This document shows, piece by piece, positions 8,962 to 43,506 of a stretch of 64,000 nt of DNA. The notes beneath the pieces are model-generated. The model ran no database searches. It had not been told where the DNA came from and saw only the letters and a program-made list of their open reading frames with translations. Positions within the stretch are counted from its first letter, which is position 1, and every line of letters begins with the position of its first letter. Source of the DNA: an uncultured Bacteroidales bacterium (lineage in GTDB: Bacteria; Bacteroidota; Bacteroidia; Bacteroidales; UBA10428); contig CAYWCR010000012.1 of the NCBI GenBank assembly GCA_964456825.1, positions 1,223-65,222 on the forward strand, in the 5' to 3' direction. The position numbers and the translations under genes are program-made.

Positions 8962-9020
8962 CTTTATTCTAAAATCAACAAATCAATCCGTCTTTGCTGA
9001 AGCTACGACGGACGCAGCAA

Positions 9021-9076
9021 ATCAAAAAATCAATAAATCAACAAATCAACAAATCAACAAATCAACAAATCAACAA
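9021..9076. repeat. Octamer array (ATCAACAA)x7 ending 6 nt before the rhaT ATG
   Basis: atcaaaaa atcaataa, then 5 perfect atcaacaa units. Two more units lie at 8974-8989. Confidence 0.9.
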
Positions 9077-9082
9077 ATACTC

Positions 9083-23488: not shown

Positions 23489-23520
23489 TTATTGTTCACA
23501 GATATTAACAATTTGCCCGA

Positions 23521-24165
23521 TCAGGTCCGGATTTTTTTATCAGGGTAAGGACAAATATCAGCAAGATGGCAAAGATGGCATTTAGGTCTTCGGGAAGTGC
23601 ATACATACCTTCCATGTAAAATCAGCCAGTGATGGGCAATTGGAATGAGCTTCTCAGGAATATACTGAACCAGCTGTCTTTCTGAAGCCAAAGGAGTCCT
23701 GGCATTACGGGTCAGCCCGAGTCTTGCTGAAACCCTGAAAACATGCGTATCCACCGCAAGTGCTGGTTGATTAAATACGACCGCTGCAATCACATTGGCC
23801 GTTTTTCTGCCAACGCCGGGCAATCTCATAAGATCTTCAATCCCTGAGGGTACAATTCCTCCGAATTCGTTCAACAAAGTACGCGCCATTCCGACCAGGT
23901 GCTTCGATTTGTTATTCGGATAGGAACAGCTTTTTATATATTCATACACTTCCTGTGGTGTAGAACCGGCCATGTCGCTAACGGTCGGAAAACGATGCAG
24001 CAGGGCAGGGGTGATCATATTGACCCGTTTGTCAGTGCATTGGGCTGAAAGAATAACAGCTACCAGGAGTTCGTAGGGAGTTCTGTATAAAAGCTCAGTC
24101 TCCGCAACAGGCATATGCTGCTGAAAACGTTCAATTACCCTGGCAAATCGTTCTTTCCTGTTCAT
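23521..24165 (-). CDS. nth: Endonuclease III
   Basis: HhH-GPD block (LMRLPGVGRKTANVI). C-terminal 4Fe-4S cluster loop CTSRRPKCHLCHLADIC. Confidence 0.9.
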   Translation of the reverse strand: MNRKERFARVIERFQQHMPVAETELLYRTPYELLVAVILSAQCTDKRVNMITPALLHRFPTVSDMAGSTPQEVYEYIKSCSYPNNKSKHLVGMARTLLNEFGGIVPSGIEDLMRLPGVGRKTANVIAAVVFNQPALAVDTHVFRVSARLGLTRNARTPLASERQLVQYIPEKLIPIAHHWLILHGRYVCTSRRPKCHLCHLADICPYPDKKIRT

Positions 24166-24226
24166 GAGGTGATGTATTGGATAAATAAGTCATACAGCCT
24201 GCCTGCATCGCCTTTGCGTAACCGCT

Positions 24227-24284
24227 AACAATTAACAATTAACAATTATGCCTTATGCCTTTTGCCTTTTACCTTTTGCCTTTT
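24227..24284. repeat. Composite heptamer array (AACAATT)x3 followed by (WTRCCTT)x5
   Basis: aacaatt x3 (24227-24247), then atgcctt atgcctt ttgcctt ttacctt ttgcctt (24248-24282). The same composite occurs in inverted orientation at 43363-43483. Confidence 0.9.
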
Positions 24285-24380
24285 AGCCACCGGCTACTGT
24301 CAAAAATACCAAATAATCCATTAATTTCAACCACTGGTTTGTCTGCTGCAGTTCGATTTTGAATATTCAAAAACTTTGTT

Positions 24381-24388
24381 TATTTTTG
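24381..24388 (+). promoter_or_regulatory. Candidate Bacteroidota -7 promoter box (TAnnTTTG) for the aromatic amino-acid operon leader
   Basis: tatttttg matches TAnnTTTG and ends 17 nt upstream of the leader ATG at 24406. Confidence 0.5.
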
Positions 24389-24405
24389 CACTCCAATAAG
24401 ATTAT

Positions 24406-24468
24406 ATGAATAATTATACAACCATAGCATTCTATTTTTATTATTTTTTTTACTTCCGGAAAACCTGA
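24406..24468 (+). CDS. Phe/Tyr-rich leader peptide (20 codons) of a transcription attenuator
   Basis: ATG AAT AAT TAT ACA ACC ATA GCA TTC TAT TTT TAT TAT TTT TTT TAC TTC CGG AAA ACC TGA translates to MNNYTTIAFYFYYFFYF RKT. It contains nine consecutive aromatic codons (5 Phe and 5 Tyr in total). Too short for the ORF track. Confidence 0.65.
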   Translation: MNNYTTIAFYFYYFFYFRKT

Positions 24469-24505
24469 AGGGGCTTTGTTTGTATAATAAACTAAGGCAT
24501 TATAT

Positions 24506-24540
24506 AAAGGAGTCCCGGAAAAACGGGGCTCCTTTTTTTT
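24506..24540 (+). terminator. Intrinsic terminator of the attenuator, 26 nt upstream of the pheA ATG
   Basis: GGAGTCCCG (24509-24517) pairs with CGGGGCTCC (24524-24532): 9 bp including one G.U, with a 6-nt loop. It is followed by T8 (24533-24540). Confidence 0.75.
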
Positions 24541-24566
24541 ATAACCTGTCACCTTGAACGTTAATT

Positions 24567-25427
24567 ATGAATGAAACTGCTGTAAAGCCAAAAAGAATCG
24601 CAATCCAGGGAGGCTATGGCGCTTTCCACGAGATTGCAGCCTTGAATTATTTCGAAAACGAAGAAATTGAGATCATACCGCGAAACACATTCAAAGACTT
24701 ATTCCAGGCATTAAAACAAGGTTTTGTGGATTATGGGATCACGGCCATTGAAAATTCCATTGCAGGAAGCATCTTACCGAATTATACCCTGCTGCTGGAA
24801 TCCAATCTGAGCATCATCGGGGAAATATTCCTGCGGATAGAGCAAAACATGGTTGCCTTACCCGGCCAGCGAATAGAAGATATCCGGGAAGTGCATTCAC
24901 ACCCCATGGCCATTCTGCAATGCATGCGTTTCTTTGACGATTATCCGCACATCGTGCTGGTGGACAGTATTGACACAGCCTTATGTGCAAAGGAAATTGC
25001 TGACAGGAAGATCATGGGAAGAGCGGCAATTGCAGGCAAAAAAGCAGCCCGTCAGTACGGACTTGAAATTATTGCAGAGAGCATTGAAACCCACAAAATG
25101 AATTATACCCGGTTTCTTATACTGAAAGGGAAAAACGGAAAAAATCTGATATCAGTGGTTGCGAACAAAGCTTCCGTCACCTTCGCCCTGGCTCATAAAA
25201 TTGGCTGTCTTTCGAAAGTATTGTCCATTTTGTCCTATTATAATATCAACCTGGCTAAAATACAGTCCATGCCTATTATTGGCAAAGACTGGGAATATCA
25301 GTTCTTTGTGGATGTGGAAATTGATGATTATCCCTTATATCTTCAGGCATTGGAAGCTATTAAACCATTTACAAGCCATCTTCAGATCCTTGGAGAGTAT
25401 CTCAAGGGTAAGGCAATACAAGAATAA
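24567..25427 (+). CDS. pheA: Prephenate dehydratase
   Basis: PDT domain (IAIQGGYGAFHE) plus a C-terminal ACT domain (ASVTFALAHKIGCLSKVLSIL...NLAKIQSMP). Confidence 0.9.
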   Translation: MNETAVKPKRIAIQGGYGAFHEIAALNYFENEEIEIIPRNTFKDLFQALKQGFVDYGITAIENSIAGSILPNYTLLLESNLSIIGEIFLRIEQNMVALPGQRIEDIREVHSHPMAILQCMRFFDDYPHIVLVDSIDTALCAKEIADRKIMGRAAIAGKKAARQYGLEIIAESIETHKMNYTRFLILKGKNGKNLISVVANKASVTFALAHKIGCLSKVLSILSYYNINLAKIQSMPIIGKDWEYQFFVDVEIDDYPLYLQALEAIKPFTSHLQILGEYLKGKAIQE

Positions 25428-25431
25428 TCCC

Positions 25432-26520
25432 ATGAGTATTACACTTAAATTAACGCCCTTCACTTTTGAAGGTGTTCCGGAGGAGCGGCCCCTGGTTATG
25501 TCAGGTCCATGCAGCGCTGAGTCGGAGGAACAGGTTATGGAAACAGCCATACAACTAAAAAATGCCGGGATAAAAATATTCCGGGCTGGCATCTGGAAAC
25601 CCCGCACACGCCCCAGTGCTTTTGAGGGAGTCGGAAAGGAAGGATTGCCCTGGCTGAAACGCGTAAAAGAGGAATTAAAAATGTATACGGCTACCGAAGT
25701 AGCCAATGTGAAACATGTATACGATGCGCTGAAAGCCGGAATTGACATGCTTTGGCTGGGGGCAAGGACAACGGCGAATCCTTTTGCCGTCCAGGAAATC
25801 GCAGATGCCTTAAAAGGCGTGGATATTCCGATACTAATAAAGAATCCCATCAATCCTGATGTGGAATTATGGATTGGTGCCTTTGAACGGCTTAACCAGG
25901 CAGGCATTACAAAACTTGCCGCAATTCACCGGGGATTTTCCCTTTACAGCAAGACCCTGTACCGCAATCATCCGCAATGGGAAATCCCCATTGAGCTGAA
26001 ACGAAGAATACCGGATCTGCCTATCATAACGGATCCCAGCCATATTTGCGGAAGCAGGGACCTGTTGTTTGAAGTATCCCAAAGAGCAATGGACCTCGAT
26101 TTTGATGGGCTGATCATTGAAACCCATTGCCATCCTGATAAAGCACTTAGTGATGCACAGCAGCAGATCACCCCTGGCGACCTGCAGAAATTGCTCAGCA
26201 GACTGATCCTCAGGAAAGCCAACATCGAAAGCAATGCTCTTTTGTCAACCCTGGAAGAACTGCGCCATGAAATTGATAAATATGACGACCGGCTGGTGGA
26301 AATATTCGAACTTAGAATGGCCGTGGCACGAAAAATCGGCCTTTATAAGAAAAACAACAATATTACCATCCTCCAGACCAACCGCTGGGATGAAATACTG
26401 AAACACCGGATTGATCAGGCGGCACAGAAAGGATTGAGTGAGGAATTCATCATTAAGGTTTTCCGGGCCATTCATGAAGAATCCATCAATCATCAGACCA
26501 GGGTTATGAATGAACAATGA
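25432..26520 (+). CDS. Bifunctional 3-deoxy-7-phosphoheptulonate synthase / chorismate mutase type II
   Basis: KDSA-like DAHPS core (SGPCSAESEEQ, KPRT.P..F.G, DPSH). C-terminal CM helix bundle (LEELRHEIDKYDDRLVEIFELRMAVARKIG). The start is at MSITLK (25432), 4 nt after the pheA stop. The ORF-track start at 25159 would overlap pheA. Confidence 0.9.
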   Translation: MSITLKLTPFTFEGVPEERPLVMSGPCSAESEEQVMETAIQLKNAGIKIFRAGIWKPRTRPSAFEGVGKEGLPWLKRVKEELKMYTATEVANVKHVYDALKAGIDMLWLGARTTANPFAVQEIADALKGVDIPILIKNPINPDVELWIGAFERLNQAGITKLAAIHRGFSLYSKTLYRNHPQWEIPIELKRRIPDLPIITDPSHICGSRDLLFEVSQRAMDLDFDGLIIETHCHPDKALSDAQQQITPGDLQKLLSRLILRKANIESNALLSTLEELRHEIDKYDDRLVEIFELRMAVARKIGLYKKNNNITILQTNRWDEILKHRIDQAAQKGLSEEFIIKVFRAIHEESINHQTRVMNEQ

Positions 26521-26575
26521 GCAATGAACAATGAGCAATGAACAATGAACAATGAGCAATGAACAACAAACAATA
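26506..26575. repeat. Heptamer array (ARCAATG)x~10 that begins inside the last codons of the DAHPS/CM gene
   Basis: atgaatg aacaatg agcaatg aacaatg agcaatg aacaatg aacaatg agcaatg aacaaca aacaata. Codons AAT GAA CAA TGA (..NEQ stop, 26509-26520) are part of the array. Confidence 0.9.
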
Positions 26576-26604: not shown

Positions 26605-26626
26605 ACCTGCCTGCCGGCAGGCAGGT
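26605..26626. repeat. Perfect 22-nt palindrome ACCTGCCTGCCGGCAGGCAGGT (GCCTGCCTG family)
   Basis: Self-complementary over its full length. Lies 15 nt upstream of the aroB start. Confidence 0.9.
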
Positions 26627-26640
26627 CAACAAATACTCAT

Positions 26641-27669
26641 GTGAGATCCATAGCCATAACCACTGAAAACAAAGTTTCACGGATCCTTATCGGTGAATCA
26701 CTGAAAAACCTGGGGAATTACCTCCCCCCGGGTAAATCCATCATCATTACCGATGACAATATCCTTCGTTATTATGCCGGAGCGCTGCCACCCATGCCGG
26801 TGATTACTATTGGCACTGGAGAAAAGCATAAAACAATGGAGACCCTTACCCATATTTTCGAAAGGTTGATCGACCTGGAAGCCGACCGCACCACCTTTAT
26901 TATCGGTATCGGCGGGGGTATTGTGTGCGATGTTGCCGGATTTGCTGCCTCGGTTTATATGCGTGGGCTCCAGTTCGGATTTGTCTCCACCACCTTGTTG
27001 TCACAGGTTGACGCAAGTGTCGGCGGGAAAAACGGAGTTAATTTCCGGCGGTTTAAAAATATGCTTGGAGTTTTCAACCAGCCTGAATTTGTTATCTGTG
27101 ATCCCCTGATGCTGAAAACACTTCAGCAAAATGAGTTTGTCGCAGGATTTGCTGAAATCGTCAAAGCCGGCGTTATTAAGTCAGCACCGTTGTTTGATTA
27201 TCTTGAGGAAAATGCGGAAAAAGCCTTGATGGCTGACCCGGAAGTGCTGGAAAACCTGGTTTATGAATCCGTCAGGATTAAGGCTGAGGTGGTGGAAGCT
27301 GATGAAAAGGAAAAAGGGGAAAGAAAAAAACTAAATTTCGGTCATACCTTTGCCCATGCTTTTGAAAATATGGCAGAAATTCTTCATGGTGAAGCCGTGA
27401 GCATGGGTATGGTATTGGCATCCAAACTGTCGCGTGACATTGGTTTTCTGGCAGCGGAAGAGGCTAACCGCATTGAACGTCTTTTATCCCGGCTGCAACT
27501 GCCGGTTAAACCCGTGATGGAACCAGGACTGGCATTGGCACCTATGAAACAGGATAAGAAAAGGGAGGGCGATGCTGTTCATATGGTCCTGCTGAAAAAG
27601 ATAGGAGAAGCTGTAATTGAAAAAATTACCTACAACAAACTGGAGGAAATAATCCATGATTTGCGTTAG
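26641..27669 (+). CDS. aroB: 3-dehydroquinate synthase
   Basis: GIGGGIVCDVAGFAAS, VDASVGGKNG, and the HTFAHAFE / HGEAVSMGM metal-site blocks. GTG start: the ATG at 26639 is out of frame and runs straight into TGA. Confidence 0.9.
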   Translation: MRSIAITTENKVSRILIGESLKNLGNYLPPGKSIIITDDNILRYYAGALPPMPVITIGTGEKHKTMETLTHIFERLIDLEADRTTFIIGIGGGIVCDVAGFAASVYMRGLQFGFVSTTLLSQVDASVGGKNGVNFRRFKNMLGVFNQPEFVICDPLMLKTLQQNEFVAGFAEIVKAGVIKSAPLFDYLEENAEKALMADPEVLENLVYESVRIKAEVVEADEKEKGERKKLNFGHTFAHAFENMAEILHGEAVSMGMVLASKLSRDIGFLAAEEANRIERLLSRLQLPVKPVMEPGLALAPMKQDKKREGDAVHMVLLKKIGEAVIEKITYNKLEEIIHDLR

Positions 27670-28294
27670 TATTTGTGAAAAGGACATCGATAAGTGTCAT
27701 GCTATTATTGAAAAGACGGAAATATCTGAGATCCGTCTCGATATGACCGATTTCGGTGACGATGAGATAGAGCGGATTTTTTCCTGCCGCAAAAGGCTTA
27801 TTGCTACCTGCAGACCTCTAAAACATTCGATGGATAAGCAAATGGAAATGTTGAAAAAGGCCATCAAATGCGGGGCAACATACGTGGATATCGAATATGA
27901 GGCACCGGATGAGTACAAACAGGAACTAATCGATTTTGCACATCATCATGAATGCTATGTGATCATATCCTATCATAATTTTGAGATGACTCCTGAAGTG
28001 GAGGAACTTGAGGAAATAATGAAGGGTTGCTTTGCCCAGGGATGTGATATTGCAAAAATTGTGACCCTGGTAAGGGTTAACCGGGATAATTCAAAAATAC
28101 TTTCCTTATACAAGAGTCCGGGCCGCCTGATTGCCTTCGGCATGGGGGATCTCGGTAAAATAACCCGCATTGTAGCGCCGTTCCTGGGTGCGGAGTTTAC
28201 ATATGCAGCCATGGATGAAGGGGATCCGACTGCCCCGGGTCAGATAAGGTACACTAGGCTGAAGGAATTTATTTCATCCATTCAACAAATCTGA
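27656..28294 (+). CDS. aroD: Type I 3-dehydroquinate dehydratase
   Basis: 212 aa. MICVSI...EIRLD start and YHNFE..TP block typical of AroD. Overlaps the aroB end by 14 nt. Confidence 0.8.
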   Translation: MICVSICEKDIDKCHAIIEKTEISEIRLDMTDFGDDEIERIFSCRKRLIATCRPLKHSMDKQMEMLKKAIKCGATYVDIEYEAPDEYKQELIDFAHHHECYVIISYHNFEMTPEVEELEEIMKGCFAQGCDIAKIVTLVRVNRDNSKILSLYKSPGRLIAFGMGDLGKITRIVAPFLGAEFTYAAMDEGDPTAPGQIRYTRLKEFISSIQQI

Positions 28295-28297
28295 AGC

Positions 28298-29302
28298 ATG
28301 AACAGTTTTGGCAAATTATTTCGGGTAAGCATCTTTGGAGAATCACATGGTACCAATGTCGGTCTGGTGATCGATGGTTGTCCTGCCGGCCTGCCGCTGA
28401 CCGTGGAAGAATTTGCGGAAGACTTTAACCGGCGCAGGAGCGGTGCCAGGGGCACTACACCCCGTACAGAAACCGATCAGCCGGGCCTTAAAAGCGGTGT
28501 TTTCCATGATCACACAACCGGAGCCCCCGTTATGATATTGTTCGAAAACACCAATACCCGCTCGCGCGATTATGCCCAACTGAGAGATATCCCCCGGCCG
28601 GGCCATGCTGATTTTGTGGCGATGAAGAAATTTGGCGGGTATGAAGATTACCGGGGAGGCGGTCATTTTTCGGGAAGACTCACCCTTGGCCTTGTAGCTG
28701 CCGGAGTGATCGCTAAAAAAATCATTGCTCCGGTGAAGGTAAGCACCCGAATAATGGAAGCCGGTGGCAATAAAAATATTGAGGAAGCCATAACGGCGGC
28801 TGTTGAGCAAAAGGATTCCATCGGCGGAATTATCGAATGCAGGGTTATGAATGTACCGGTCGGTTTGGGTGAACCTTTTTTTGATTCAGTTGAATCTGTA
28901 TTGAGCCATATGATGCTCTCCATACCTGCTATCAAGGGGATTGAATTCGGATCAGGTTTTGCCGCTGCAACAATGAAAGGCAGCGAACACAATGATAAAC
29001 TGGTTTCCGTCGACGGAAAAACAGCGACCAATTATGCCGGTGGAATAAACGGGGGAATTACCAATGGCAACGAGATTGTTTTCAGGGTCCCGGTAAAACC
29101 TACTTCAAGTATACACCTGAAACAGCGAACCATGAATGTCAACATTGGCGAAATGACTGACCTTGAGATTGAAGGCAGGCATGATACGTGTATTGCGCTG
29201 CGTATACCTGTGGTGATTGAAGCTGCCACAGCCATCGTGCTGACAGATTTCATGATGCAGGCAGGATTGATCCCCAGGATATGGGGTAAAGGCAGCAATT
29301 GA
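28298..29302 (+). CDS. aroC: Chorismate synthase
   Basis: FGESHG, RPGHAD and GGG.FSGR blocks. EGRHDTCIA near the C-terminus. Confidence 0.9.
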   Translation: MNSFGKLFRVSIFGESHGTNVGLVIDGCPAGLPLTVEEFAEDFNRRRSGARGTTPRTETDQPGLKSGVFHDHTTGAPVMILFENTNTRSRDYAQLRDIPRPGHADFVAMKKFGGYEDYRGGGHFSGRLTLGLVAAGVIAKKIIAPVKVSTRIMEAGGNKNIEEAITAAVEQKDSIGGIIECRVMNVPVGLGEPFFDSVESVLSHMMLSIPAIKGIEFGSGFAAATMKGSEHNDKLVSVDGKTATNYAGGINGGITNGNEIVFRVPVKPTSSIHLKQRTMNVNIGEMTDLEIEGRHDTCIALRIPVVIEAATAIVLTDFMMQAGLIPRIWGKGSN

Positions 29303-29343
29303 GGTTCGACCGGAAGAACCCACATTAACGGGAAACGAAAAGT

Positions 29344-29364
29344 GAACATTGAACAGTGAACAAT
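29344..29364. repeat. Heptamer array GAACAnT x3
   Basis: gaacatt gaacagt gaacaat. Same word family as 26506-26575. Confidence 0.7.
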
Positions 29365-29424
29365 GACCCTCCTTCGCCATGGTTAAGGCAGGCAAGTCAG
29401 TAAACAAAACATAAAACAGCATCT

Positions 29425-30198
29425 ATGAAAATCTTAGTTGTCGGAGCCGGAAAAATGGGCACCTGGTTGATTGAATCCCTTTGCCTTGATCATGAAGTTG
29501 CCGCTTTTGATACGGATCTCAACCGGCTGAAATATTTATTTAATACCATAAAATTAGTTACGCACGAGGAAATTACAGCGTTTGATCCTGATATGGTTAT
29601 CAATGCTGTAAGCCTTGAAAGAACCATACCGGTATACCATGACATCATACCGCTTCTCAGCGAAAAATGCCTGCTGGCAGATATTACTTCGGTTAAAAAC
29701 GGGTTGCGCAATTTTTATCTGCAACAGGGAAGAAGATTTGTATCAACCCACCCTATGTTCGGTCCTACTTTTGCCAACATCAAAAGTCTTGCCGGGCAGA
29801 ATGCCATTATTATCAGTGAGTCGGATGAAGAAGGGAAAAAATTCTTCCATAATTTTTTCAATGGCTTTAATCTTAATATTTTTGAGTACTCGTTTACAGA
29901 ACATGATCAAACCATTGCGTATTCCCTTTCCATACCGTTTGCTTCCAGCATGGTATTTGCTGCATGCATGAAAAAGCAGGAAGCCCCAGGAACAACTTTT
30001 AAAAAACATTATGAAATAGCCCGCGGCGTTTTGTCAGAAGATGATTATCTCCTGGCTGAGATATTGTTCAGTCCCTATACCCATGATCAGATTGAAAGGA
30101 TTGGTGAACGCCTTAATTTTCTTAAGGAGATCATCAATGAGAAAAGCTTTGTGAAAATGAAGCAGTTTTTGGATGATCTCAGGGATAATATAAAGTAA
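29425..30198 (+). CDS. tyrA: Prephenate dehydrogenase
   Basis: MKILVVGAGKMG Rossmann start, STHPMFGP block. Last gene of the aromatic operon. Confidence 0.8.
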   Translation: MKILVVGAGKMGTWLIESLCLDHEVAAFDTDLNRLKYLFNTIKLVTHEEITAFDPDMVINAVSLERTIPVYHDIIPLLSEKCLLADITSVKNGLRNFYLQQGRRFVSTHPMFGPTFANIKSLAGQNAIIISESDEEGKKFFHNFFNGFNLNIFEYSFTEHDQTIAYSLSIPFASSMVFAACMKKQEAPGTTFKKHYEIARGVLSEDDYLLAEILFSPYTHDQIERIGERLNFLKEIINEKSFVKMKQFLDDLRDNIK

Positions 30199-30224
30199 CC
30201 GCCTGCCGTTACCGGTTACTTTTT
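30194..30224 (+). terminator. Intrinsic terminator overlapping the tyrA stop
   Basis: agtaaccg (30194-30201) pairs with cggttact (30213-30220), followed by tttt. Located between convergent genes. Confidence 0.55.
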
Positions 30225-41245: not shown

Positions 41246-42091
41246 ATGAAGAATACGACATTTGATGATCTCAAAGGAAAAGTCTGCGTGATCACGGGTG
41301 GAGCTGGCGTTATCGGGTCTGCTCTGGCTGAAGGACTTGGTTATGCCGGTGTAAAAGTAGCCCTTTTGGACATCAATGAAGAACTGGCCAGCAAAGCCGC
41401 TGAAAATGTTAAAATGGTCACAGGCACTGAGGCAGCAGGTTTTAAAGCCAATGTGCTGGATAAAGCCTCATTGATCGAAGCCAGGAAAAATGTAAATGCC
41501 CGGTTTGGAAATATTGAGTTCCTGATAAACGGAGCCGGTGGCAACTCGCCAAAAGCAACAACACAGGTCGAACAGATCATGGATATCAACGAACTGGATA
41601 AGTCATTCTTCGGTCTTGAAATGGAAGCATTTGACAAGGTTTTTGCACTGAATTTTACCGGAACATTGCTCCCAACCATGGTTTTTGCTGACGAAATGCT
41701 GAAACGGCATAAAGGTGTGATCCTGAATATTTCTTCCATGAATTCTTTCAGGCCGCTGACGAAAATACCTGCCTATTCTGCAGCAAAAGCCTCCATTAAT
41801 AACTTCACGCAATGGCTGGCGGTGCATCTGGCCAAAACAGGGATCCGTGTGAATGCCATAGCCCCCGGGTTTTTTCTCACCAACCAAAACCGTTTCCTGC
41901 TGACGGATGAAAAAACCGGCGCTCCGACTGCCCGGGGACTGAAAATTATTGCTAACACACCCGTAGGAAAATACGGAACGCCGGAGGATCTGCAGGGCGC
42001 AGCGCTGTTCCTGCTTTCTGATATTTCACAGTTTATCAACGGCATCATTCTTCCTGTCGATGGCGGATACAGTGCATACGGGGGAGTTTAG
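41246..42091 (+). CDS. SDR-family oxidoreductase (UxuB-like mannonate/fructuronate type)
   Basis: TGGAGVIG cofactor motif, NGAG, and the S...YSAAK catalytic tetrad region. The substrate assignment is inferred from context only. Confidence 0.7.
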   Translation: MKNTTFDDLKGKVCVITGGAGVIGSALAEGLGYAGVKVALLDINEELASKAAENVKMVTGTEAAGFKANVLDKASLIEARKNVNARFGNIEFLINGAGGNSPKATTQVEQIMDINELDKSFFGLEMEAFDKVFALNFTGTLLPTMVFADEMLKRHKGVILNISSMNSFRPLTKIPAYSAAKASINNFTQWLAVHLAKTGIRVNAIAPGFFLTNQNRFLLTDEKTGAPTARGLKIIANTPVGKYGTPEDLQGAALFLLSDISQFINGIILPVDGGYSAYGGV

Positions 42092-42272
42092 AAGAAGGGA
42101 CAAGGGACAAGGAACAAGGAAGTGACAAGGGACGAGTTTAGGAATATAGCTTTTTAGCGATTTAGCAGTTTAGCGATTTAGCCTAAAGCCTGCAGACCGC
42201 AAGACCGCATGACCGCATGACCGCAACTATTAAATCAACAAATCAACAAATCATCAAATCAACCAATATTCC
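42092..42272. repeat. Intergenic spacer made almost entirely of four consecutive short tandem arrays
   Basis: (GGGACAA/GGAACAA) 42097-42135. (TAGCGATT/TAGCAGTT) 42155-42183. (GACCGCAW) 42193-42227. (ATCAACAA-like)x4 42234-42265, ending 7 nt before the ATG at 42273. Confidence 0.9.
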
Positions 42273-43362: not shown

Positions 43363-43506
43363 AAGGCATAAGGCAAAAGAAAAAAGGCATAAGGCATAAG
43401 GCATAAGGCATAAGGCTGAAGAGTATAATGGTTAATTGATCAATTGTCCAATATTTATTGTTCATTGTTAATTGTTAATTGACAGTCTATAGCCTGCAGC
43501 CTGCTG
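43363..43506. repeat. Composite array: (AAGGCAT)x8, a 12-nt palindrome, (TTGTTMA)x4, TCTATAG/CCTGCAG words
   Basis: Heptamer register is kept across 43363-43418. AATTGATCAATT palindrome at 43434-43445. tattgttcattgttaattgttaattgac at 43456-43483. This is the reverse complement of the 24227-24284 composite. Confidence 0.9.

Follow-up and report, generated by a model that had tools for sequence, protein, structure and literature searches.

A probable leader-peptide attenuator with a mixed Phe/Tyr codon run ahead of a putative pheA-tyrA operon in an uncultured Bacteroidales bacterium

The DNA considered here, which we will refer to as the window, is a 64,000-nt stretch from an uncultured Bacteroidales bacterium (UBA10428; assembly GCA_964456825.1, contig CAYWCR010000012.1, positions 1,223-65,222 of the forward strand) whose lineage is known from metagenome-assembled genomes (MAGs) only. 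On its plus strand, six genes of aromatic amino acid synthesis follow a short leader that contains an aromatic mini-ORF (open reading frame) and an intrinsic terminator, and this leader is our subject. The first structural gene is pheA (24567-25427), encoding prephenate dehydratase with an ACT domain (Pfam PDT, 5e-54, and ACT). Next come a DAHP synthase fused to chorismate mutase (25432-26520; Pfam DAHP_synth_1 and CM_2), whose start at the ATG at 25432 gives a length matching the 362-aa ORF of a related locus (L004), then aroB (26641-27669), a type I aroD (27656-28294) and aroC (28298-29302), all three assigned from Pfam matches and ORFs, and lastly a tyrA-like prephenate dehydrogenase gene (29425-30198; Pfam PDH_N, 7e-10). 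Between 24541 and 30198 there is neither an intergenic TAnnTTTG promoter box nor a plus-strand terminator-like site, so a single operon running from pheA to tyrA is plausible. The gene after tyrA is convergent, and the gene upstream of the leader, encoding an HhH-GPD glycosylase (23521-24165), is divergent.

The leader ORF occupies 24406-24468 of the plus strand (ATG at 24406, TGA at 24466-24468) and comprises 20 codons plus the stop, encoding the peptide MNNYTTIAFYFYYFFYFRKT (MNNYTTIAFYFYYFFYF RKT); an in-frame TAA at 24397-24399, upstream of the ATG, rules out a longer version. With five Phe, five Tyr and no Trp residues, the peptide includes nine consecutive Phe/Tyr codons, FYFYYFFYF, at 24430-24456 (TTC TAT TTT TAT TAT TTT TTT TAC TTC), all of which agrees in coordinates and translation with a preliminary description of this DNA. 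Among the 1223 ATG-started ORFs of 8-40 codons in the six frames of the window, the longest aromatic run elsewhere is four codons, as opposed to nine in the leader, and the aromatic mini-ORF is beyond chance. The products of the operon, Phe, Tyr and chorismate, fit a sensor of mixed Phe and Tyr codons.

A TAnnTTTG box, reported in the same description, reads TATTTTTG at 24381-24388 on the plus strand, in the position of a -7 element, and places the putative transcription start site (TSS) near 24394-24396, about 11 nt before the leader ATG. As stand-alone evidence such a box was rejected, as 24 occur in the window and about 24 are expected per strand. Its conservation is significant: 24 of 28 relatives have it upstream of the leader ATG at a distance of 9-22 nt, mostly 17-19, and it is almost invariant in a 28-sequence MAFFT alignment of leaders (alignment A1). 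A TTTG at 24358-24361, 19 nt upstream of the box on the same strand, might be the -33 element of a Bacteroidota-type promoter; this tentative assignment draws on the equal 19-nt spacing in two relatives (L001 and L002), the element not being found in many others. Short tandem arrays, TAACAAT three times and TGCCTTT five times, lie just upstream of the leader promoter, and in one relative a tRNA gene (L024:2705-2778; Rfam tRNA, 67 bits) directly precedes it.

The intrinsic terminator lies at 24506-24540 of the plus strand and consists of a 12-bp stem (24506-24517 with 24524-24535), a GAAAAA loop and a T8 tract (24533-24540), with a free energy of -21.3 kcal/mol. Its core is the 9-bp G/C stem already noted at 24509-24532 (24509-24517 with 24524-24532, including one G-U pair), which three A-U pairs extend to 24506-24535; from the end of the T8 tract at 24540 to the pheA ATG at 24567 there are 26 nt, also as described. 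It is the sole site with a long, 12-pair stem on the plus strand between 23500 and 31000, the other plus-strand match there having six pairs. That it might serve as the end of an upstream gene was rejected, the glycosylase gene being divergent and on the other strand. The 151-nt leader as a whole folds to -37.1 kcal/mol, as compared with -23.6 +/- 3.5 for shuffled sequences (z -3.9), and none of 200 shuffles folds as well.

Two plus-strand segments upstream of the terminator complete a set of mutually exclusive pairings. Segment 1 (24413-24429), the 5' strand of a predicted anti-antiterminator, spans leader codons 3-8 and pairs with 24473-24488 in the minimum free energy (MFE) fold of the full leader (-14.3 kcal/mol). 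Segment 2 (24470-24488), the 5' strand of the antiterminator, starts 2 nt after the stop codon, is made up of a GGGGCUU clamp and UUUGUAUAAU, and can pair with either segment 1 or segment 3. Segment 3 (24499-24516), the 3' strand of the antiterminator, overlaps the left arm of the terminator (segments 3:4). The predicted 2:3 antiterminator is a 17-bp hairpin (24470-24476 with 24510-24516, and 24479-24488 with 24499-24508; -15.1 kcal/mol), in which a 10-bp A/U stem joins the pairing of GGGGCTTT (24470-24477) with the left arm of the terminator, the first of two candidate antiterminators proposed earlier. The comparison of fold energies called for in that proposal thus sets -21.3 kcal/mol for the terminator against -15.1 for the antiterminator. 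RNA truncated at 24523, in which segment 4 is absent, has the antiterminator as its MFE fold, whether free or carrying a ribosome footprint on any Phe or Tyr codon, the footprint being assumed to extend from -15 to +12 nt around the A-site codon (28 nt). With the footprint on the stop codon, which protects to 24478, the G-clamp is masked, the antiterminator is lost and the G/C core of the left arm of the terminator is left unpaired. The Phe and Tyr codons themselves are unpaired in the folds of the window, where they occupy the loop that joins segment 1 to segment 2.

The second candidate antiterminator, TTCCGG (24454-24459) with CCGGAA (24515-24520), did not hold up as a conserved element. 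Both motifs are at these sites, but apart from the window and its closest relative (L001), where their pairing reaches -10 kcal/mol, it shrinks to 3-5 bp or is missing. The TTCCGG region may add a few pairs in this genome, where the truncated fold pairs 24454-24457 with 24517-24520. At the codon that follows the aromatic run (24457-24459), the window shares CGG (Arg) with a few relatives, and most others have TGG (Trp). In a small hairpin (24453-24470, -3.7 kcal/mol) the GG of this CGG also pairs with the CC of ACC, the last codon but one, and conservation of the codon may be structural, may reflect a Trp sensor, or both.

Relatives were collected by one PheA scan of species-representative genomes, which gave 30 loci, all from Bacteroidales/Bacteroidota MAGs and with PheA 51-90% identical; 28 of these have enough upstream sequence to be evaluated, and statements on conservation refer to the genome contigs scanned. 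Conservation of the mini-ORF among relatives had been named beforehand as a test of the proposed attenuator. An ATG-started ORF of 17-25 codons with a run of Phe and Tyr (sometimes also Trp) codons is present at all 28 evaluable loci, and at 27 of them it lies within 330 nt upstream of pheA. In the apparent exception (L004), the leader, MNIYTNKAFYFRYFFYFWET, is present and is followed by an insertion of about 200 nt before pheA. This G+C-rich insertion (L004:2800-3000), which separates the leader terminator from pheA, occurs neither in the window nor in the other relatives and has no Rfam match at E up to 0.1. Since RNAalifold recovered only a 6-pair fragment of the terminator from alignment A1, the stems being out of register, the sequences were folded one by one. 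The folding set of 29 comprises 28 leaders (the window and 27 loci) and the published pheA leader of Flavobacterium psychrophilum.

TTY, TAY and TGG account for 159 of the 162 codons in 20 distinct orthologous runs, and synonymous T/C changes are frequent, with C at 68 and T at 82 third positions. This period-3 pattern, taken together with the upstream in-frame ATG, speaks for translation, and not a high U content, as the object of selection. The aromatic residues of the 29 leader peptides total 162 Phe, 84 Tyr and 20 Trp, a Phe:Tyr ratio of about 2:1; every peptide has at least two Tyr codons, interleaved with Phe within the run, and 20 of the 29 (19 relatives and F. psychrophilum) have one Trp codon (TGG). 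The preponderance of Phe would suit an attenuator that answers to Phe only, a plain pheL-type element in which Tyr and Trp codons are tolerated filler in a U-rich tract, as would the position of pheA as first gene and the fact that Phe_leader is the sole Rfam family that the element resembles. We consider this improbable nonetheless, given that Tyr codons are retained in all 29 peptides in alternation with Phe, that hardly any codon in the runs is for anything other than Phe, Tyr or Trp, and that the operon includes the common pathway and ends with prephenate dehydrogenase. In addition, gamma-proteobacterial pheL has Phe runs only (PMC3082878).

The surroundings of the run behave differently from the run itself. 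An in-frame ATG precedes the run, in most of the 29 sequences by 6-13 codons and in three outliers by 4 or 21; the residues beside the run vary between relatives while the run is constant; and the tail of the ORF varies in length and frame (L007, L014, L024-26). One could suppose that the product of the mini-ORF is itself functional, an aromatic micropeptide made from a short terminated transcript of its own and without a part in pheA control: small hydrophobic peptides are common, and ORF plus terminator would yield a stable transcript of about 140 nt. Set against this are the variable tail, the lack of conservation of residues outside the run as amino acids, where the nucleotides instead covary with segment 2, the placement of the element directly upstream of pheA at 28 of 28 loci, and a conserved alternative antiterminator that overlaps the terminator; of the explanations considered, this is the least probable. 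'S/T-N' codons near the N-terminus do look conserved, which is due to the 1:2 helix.

Control of the terminator by an RNA-binding protein, a tRNA or a small molecule, with the mini-ORF incidental to a U-rich RNA element, calls for a similar weighing. Translation initiation in Bacteroidota differs from that in E. coli. Bacteroidota mRNAs generally have no Shine-Dalgarno sequence, so translation of the mini-ORF cannot be deduced from a ribosome-binding site, and in the window it is suggested by the sequence signature. That signature, however, is strict: the run obeys a period-3 T-[T/A/G]-[T/C] rule, an ATG precedes it in frame, and the reading frame closes at segment 2 or just short of it. Segment 2 also holds a conserved place relative to the stop codon despite the variable ORF tail, and no T-box, riboswitch or other Rfam family matches. 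We therefore give such non-ribosomal control a very small chance. Counted from the first base of the stop codon, the G-rich strand has its start at +4 in 20 of the 29 sequences; most of the remaining ones carry it within an extended ORF tail, and under the footprint model a ribosome completing the peptide covers it in every one of the 29.

The switch as a whole is likewise kept. A hairpin followed by T6-T10 occurs in all 29 sequences. Placing the ribosome on the last aromatic codon yields a predicted antiterminator in all 29, with z-scores of -2.1 to -5.1 when the upstream strand is dinucleotide-shuffled for comparison, and in all 29 it is gone with the ribosome on the stop codon, with 0-2 G/C pairs left. 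Segments 2 and 3 change together: GGGGC occurs with GCCCC or GUCCC, GGGAC with GUCCC, CCGGGGCU with AGUCCCGG, and, in L028 and L029, CGAGGU with GCCUCG. When duplexes are formed between cognate and non-cognate strands, the 2:3 pairing averages -12.1 kcal/mol for cognate versus -9.5 for non-cognate partners (0 of 10000 permutations, with the relatedness of the sequences left in). The 1:2 helix, found in the MFE fold of 27 of the 29, averages -13.1 versus -9.0 kcal/mol (also 0 of 10000, on the same terms). On alignment A1 this helix is 64.6% paired, as compared with 58.3 +/- 1.4 in shuffled alignments and 36-49% in slid controls; 10 of its 14 pairs show compensatory change, and its covariation score is 0.233 versus 0.149 shuffled (0 of 500).

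From its anatomy and conservation, its codon signature and its predicted alternative folds, we regard the element, with high probability, as a leader-peptide attenuator, mediated by the ribosome, that monitors the charging of tRNA-Phe and tRNA-Tyr together and controls read-through into the six-gene aromatic operon. The preliminary description had proposed just such a ribosome-mediated attenuator, responsive to both Phe and Tyr, before an operon of pheA, tyrA and common-pathway genes, and the comparative and folding evidence supports it. We infer the ribosome positions, the order of folding and the response to Phe and Tyr supply as follows. With both amino acids plentiful, the ribosome would reach the TGA, and its footprint, extending to about 24478, would cover the G-rich clamp of segment 2; with the clamp covered, segment 3 would be free to pair with segment 4, and RNA polymerase would terminate. 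If either aromatic tRNA is poorly charged, the ribosome would stall within the nine-codon run and hold segment 1 apart from segment 2; the exposed segment 2 would form the 2:3 hairpin before segment 4 is made, and the polymerase would read into pheA. If the leader is not translated, 1:2 would form, leaving 3:4 to form and transcription to terminate. Conditional read-through of this kind would be the function of the element in the lineage of the window, as far as the modelled folds indicate.

Several points weigh against this reading. In equilibrium folds the full-length RNA always prefers 1:2 plus the terminator, and, the terminator fold always being the more stable one, read-through must be decided kinetically. 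Kinetic control is a feature of classical attenuators. Stalls late in the run would leave segment 1 behind the ribosome, and exclusion of 1:2 then depends on a steric argument. The permutation support for both helices is uncorrected for the relatedness of the sequences. In a column-wise test on alignment A2 the antiterminator is 83.1% paired, but its covariation score is reached by 44 of 500 shuffles, MAFFT having left the stems out of register; the terminator, with its stems likewise out of register, is 80.4% paired and its score is reached by 9 of 500. Because the terminator, which is not in doubt, is itself not clearly supported, we count this test, which alignment register and low divergence both restrict, not as negative but as uninformative. 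Finally, for the lineage of the window, with its MAGs only, the case consists of sequence and predicted folding.

The window contains nothing at Rfam gathering score. The nearest family is Phe_leader (RF01859), which cmscan matches over its full length at 36.1 bits (E 8e-4), below the gathering threshold of 55; two relatives score 39.7 bits (L001) and 38.4 bits (L002), and eight further loci have no Phe_leader match at E up to 0.1. Membership was rejected on account of this score and of stem P1, which consists mostly of non-canonical pairs in the cmscan alignment. Bacteroid-trp (RF01692), Leu/phe leader (RF01743) and T-box (RF00230) have no match at E up to 10 in 23500-25500. The element thus lies outside every curated Rfam family, yet by its predicted folds it would work like members of the leader-peptide attenuator class. 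With Phe_leader, that is, pheL-pheA of gamma-Proteobacteria, it shares a run of Phe codons, alternative terminator and antiterminator folds, and control of pheA. It differs in that the Phe_leader consensus pairs the U-rich stretch of Phe codons, as the 5' side of a long stem, with an A-rich partner, a stem that is mostly unformed in the window. The sensor codons of E. coli pheL are within segment 1, whereas those of the window immediately follow segment 1, in the loop that separates it from segment 2. pheL has Phe codons only, whereas the leaders described here mix Phe and Tyr (and, in relatives, Trp) and the operon of the window also carries tyrA and common-pathway genes.

The closest described counterpart is the pheA leader of F. 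psychrophilum. Leader-peptide attenuation has been proposed for the pheA, hisG, trpE and ilvE operons of that species (Guerin et al. 2021, ISME Commun; PMC9723704), in which the pheA leader encodes the peptide MNTNNTFYSNNSFYFYWNIGRDCYMVI with the mixed aromatic run FYFYW (Appendix D9, Table S7). According to the supplement of that paper, the TSS of this leader maps 6 nt downstream of the corresponding TATGTTTG box, the 5' region forms a transcript segment of its own, 171 nt long, and read-through varies with conditions; the same paper gives putative terminator and antiterminator hairpins and no Rfam hit. Both leaders stand upstream of pheA and combine a mixed aromatic ORF and a TAnnTTTG promoter with a G-rich strand (GGGAUUGU in F. 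psychrophilum) complementary to the left arm of the terminator, which in F. psychrophilum is followed by T9. When folded here, the F. psychrophilum leader shows the same difference between stalled and stop-codon ribosomes as the window. The differences are that it comes from another class, Flavobacteriia, and that its aromatic run is shorter and its ORF of 27 codons runs through segment 2. Its operon is pheA-aspC3 (PMC9723704), whereas that of the window is without an aminotransferase and has aroB, aroD and aroC. A profile of the 28 leaders gives a collinear but weak nhmmer match to the F. psychrophilum sequence (11.7 bits; hit by 0 of 2000 shuffles). This similarity is too weak to prove common descent and is compatible with convergence as well.

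Other known attenuators share single traits with the element. The Bacteroid-trp leader (RF01692), curated by Weinberg et al. 2010 (PMC2864571), is also a case of leader-peptide attenuation of an aromatic operon in Bacteroidetes, but has Trp codons and precedes trpE. For B. thetaiotaomicron, a database-predicted attenuator ahead of the pheA...tyrA operon is listed by Song et al. 2005 (PMC1173090, Table 7). It resembles the window in preceding a Bacteroidales pheA...tyrA operon, a likeness that we can state from its description, a computed terminator and antiterminator only; no leader peptide is described for it there.

The thr (Thr/Ile) and ilvGMEDA (Leu/Val/Ile) attenuators of enterobacteria each carry, in one leader, codons for several amino acids. 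They are like the window in mixing codons for amino acids whose synthesis depends on the operon, and unlike it in amino acids, phylum and sequence.

At three of the related loci two complete attenuators stand in tandem before pheA (L023:7-290, L019:2683-2985 and L022:2712-2982). Each unit combines a Phe/Tyr/Trp mini-ORF of its own with a G-rich strand for the antiterminator and a terminator that has a T-run; the peptide of the second unit is MMKKNIDTYTYFFYWFFFYFFKR in L023, MNANYTLKFYCTCFWFYSYFLWG in L019 and MRMNYKRIHIIVGFFCWFYFYFFRSN in L022.

There is perhaps an even chance that the element of the window, the 28 MAG loci and the F. psychrophilum leader make up one uncurated, phylum-wide Bacteroidota family of multivalent aromatic attenuators, sensing Phe and Tyr and often, with one codon, Trp. 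Such a family would have a topology of its own, with the sensor codons in the 1-2 loop and the G-clamp 1-2 nt after the stop, so that the decision would turn on whether the ribosome reaches the stop codon, and its unit would be tandem-duplicated in some lineages. If this is true, tandem duplication would give two-stage control.

Some further features of the window lie outside the leader. Tandem Repeats Finder reports 26 rows of short tandem arrays, mostly with 7-8-nt units (also 12-20), and those that were placed lie between genes; positions include 24226-24284, 26509-26574, 29337-29366, 9018-9078, 42091-42267 and 43363-43481. An AATGAAC array of 9.4 copies separates the DAHP synthase gene from aroB, and similar arrays occur in L004. 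The 120-nt gap before aroB also holds a perfect 22-nt palindrome, ACCTGCCTGCCGGCAGGCAGGT, at 26605-26626, without a T-run; related CCTGCC/GGCAGG motifs lie near 24195-24205, 29385-29395 and, after tyrA, 30200-30215.

The kind of switch is already well known and occurs here in a little-studied lineage, and the attenuator opens no new biological question. Its mixed Phe/Tyr (and, in relatives, Trp) sensor, matched to an operon of pheA, tyrA and common-pathway genes, illustrates multivalent attenuation cleanly. With their covarying 1:2 and 2:3 helices, the 29 aligned sequences would suffice as the seed of an Rfam family where there is none today, and a possible use of the attenuator is as a Phe/Tyr-responsive part in Bacteroides engineering. 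For the uncultured Bacteroidales lineage, a cis-regulatory annotation is gained and a 400-nt 'empty' intergenic region is explained: a mini-gene and a switchable terminator very likely turn on the aromatic genes only when Phe or Tyr runs short. Across Bacteroidales relatives with PheA down to 51% identical, the predicted four-segment arrangement of classical attenuation is kept complete.

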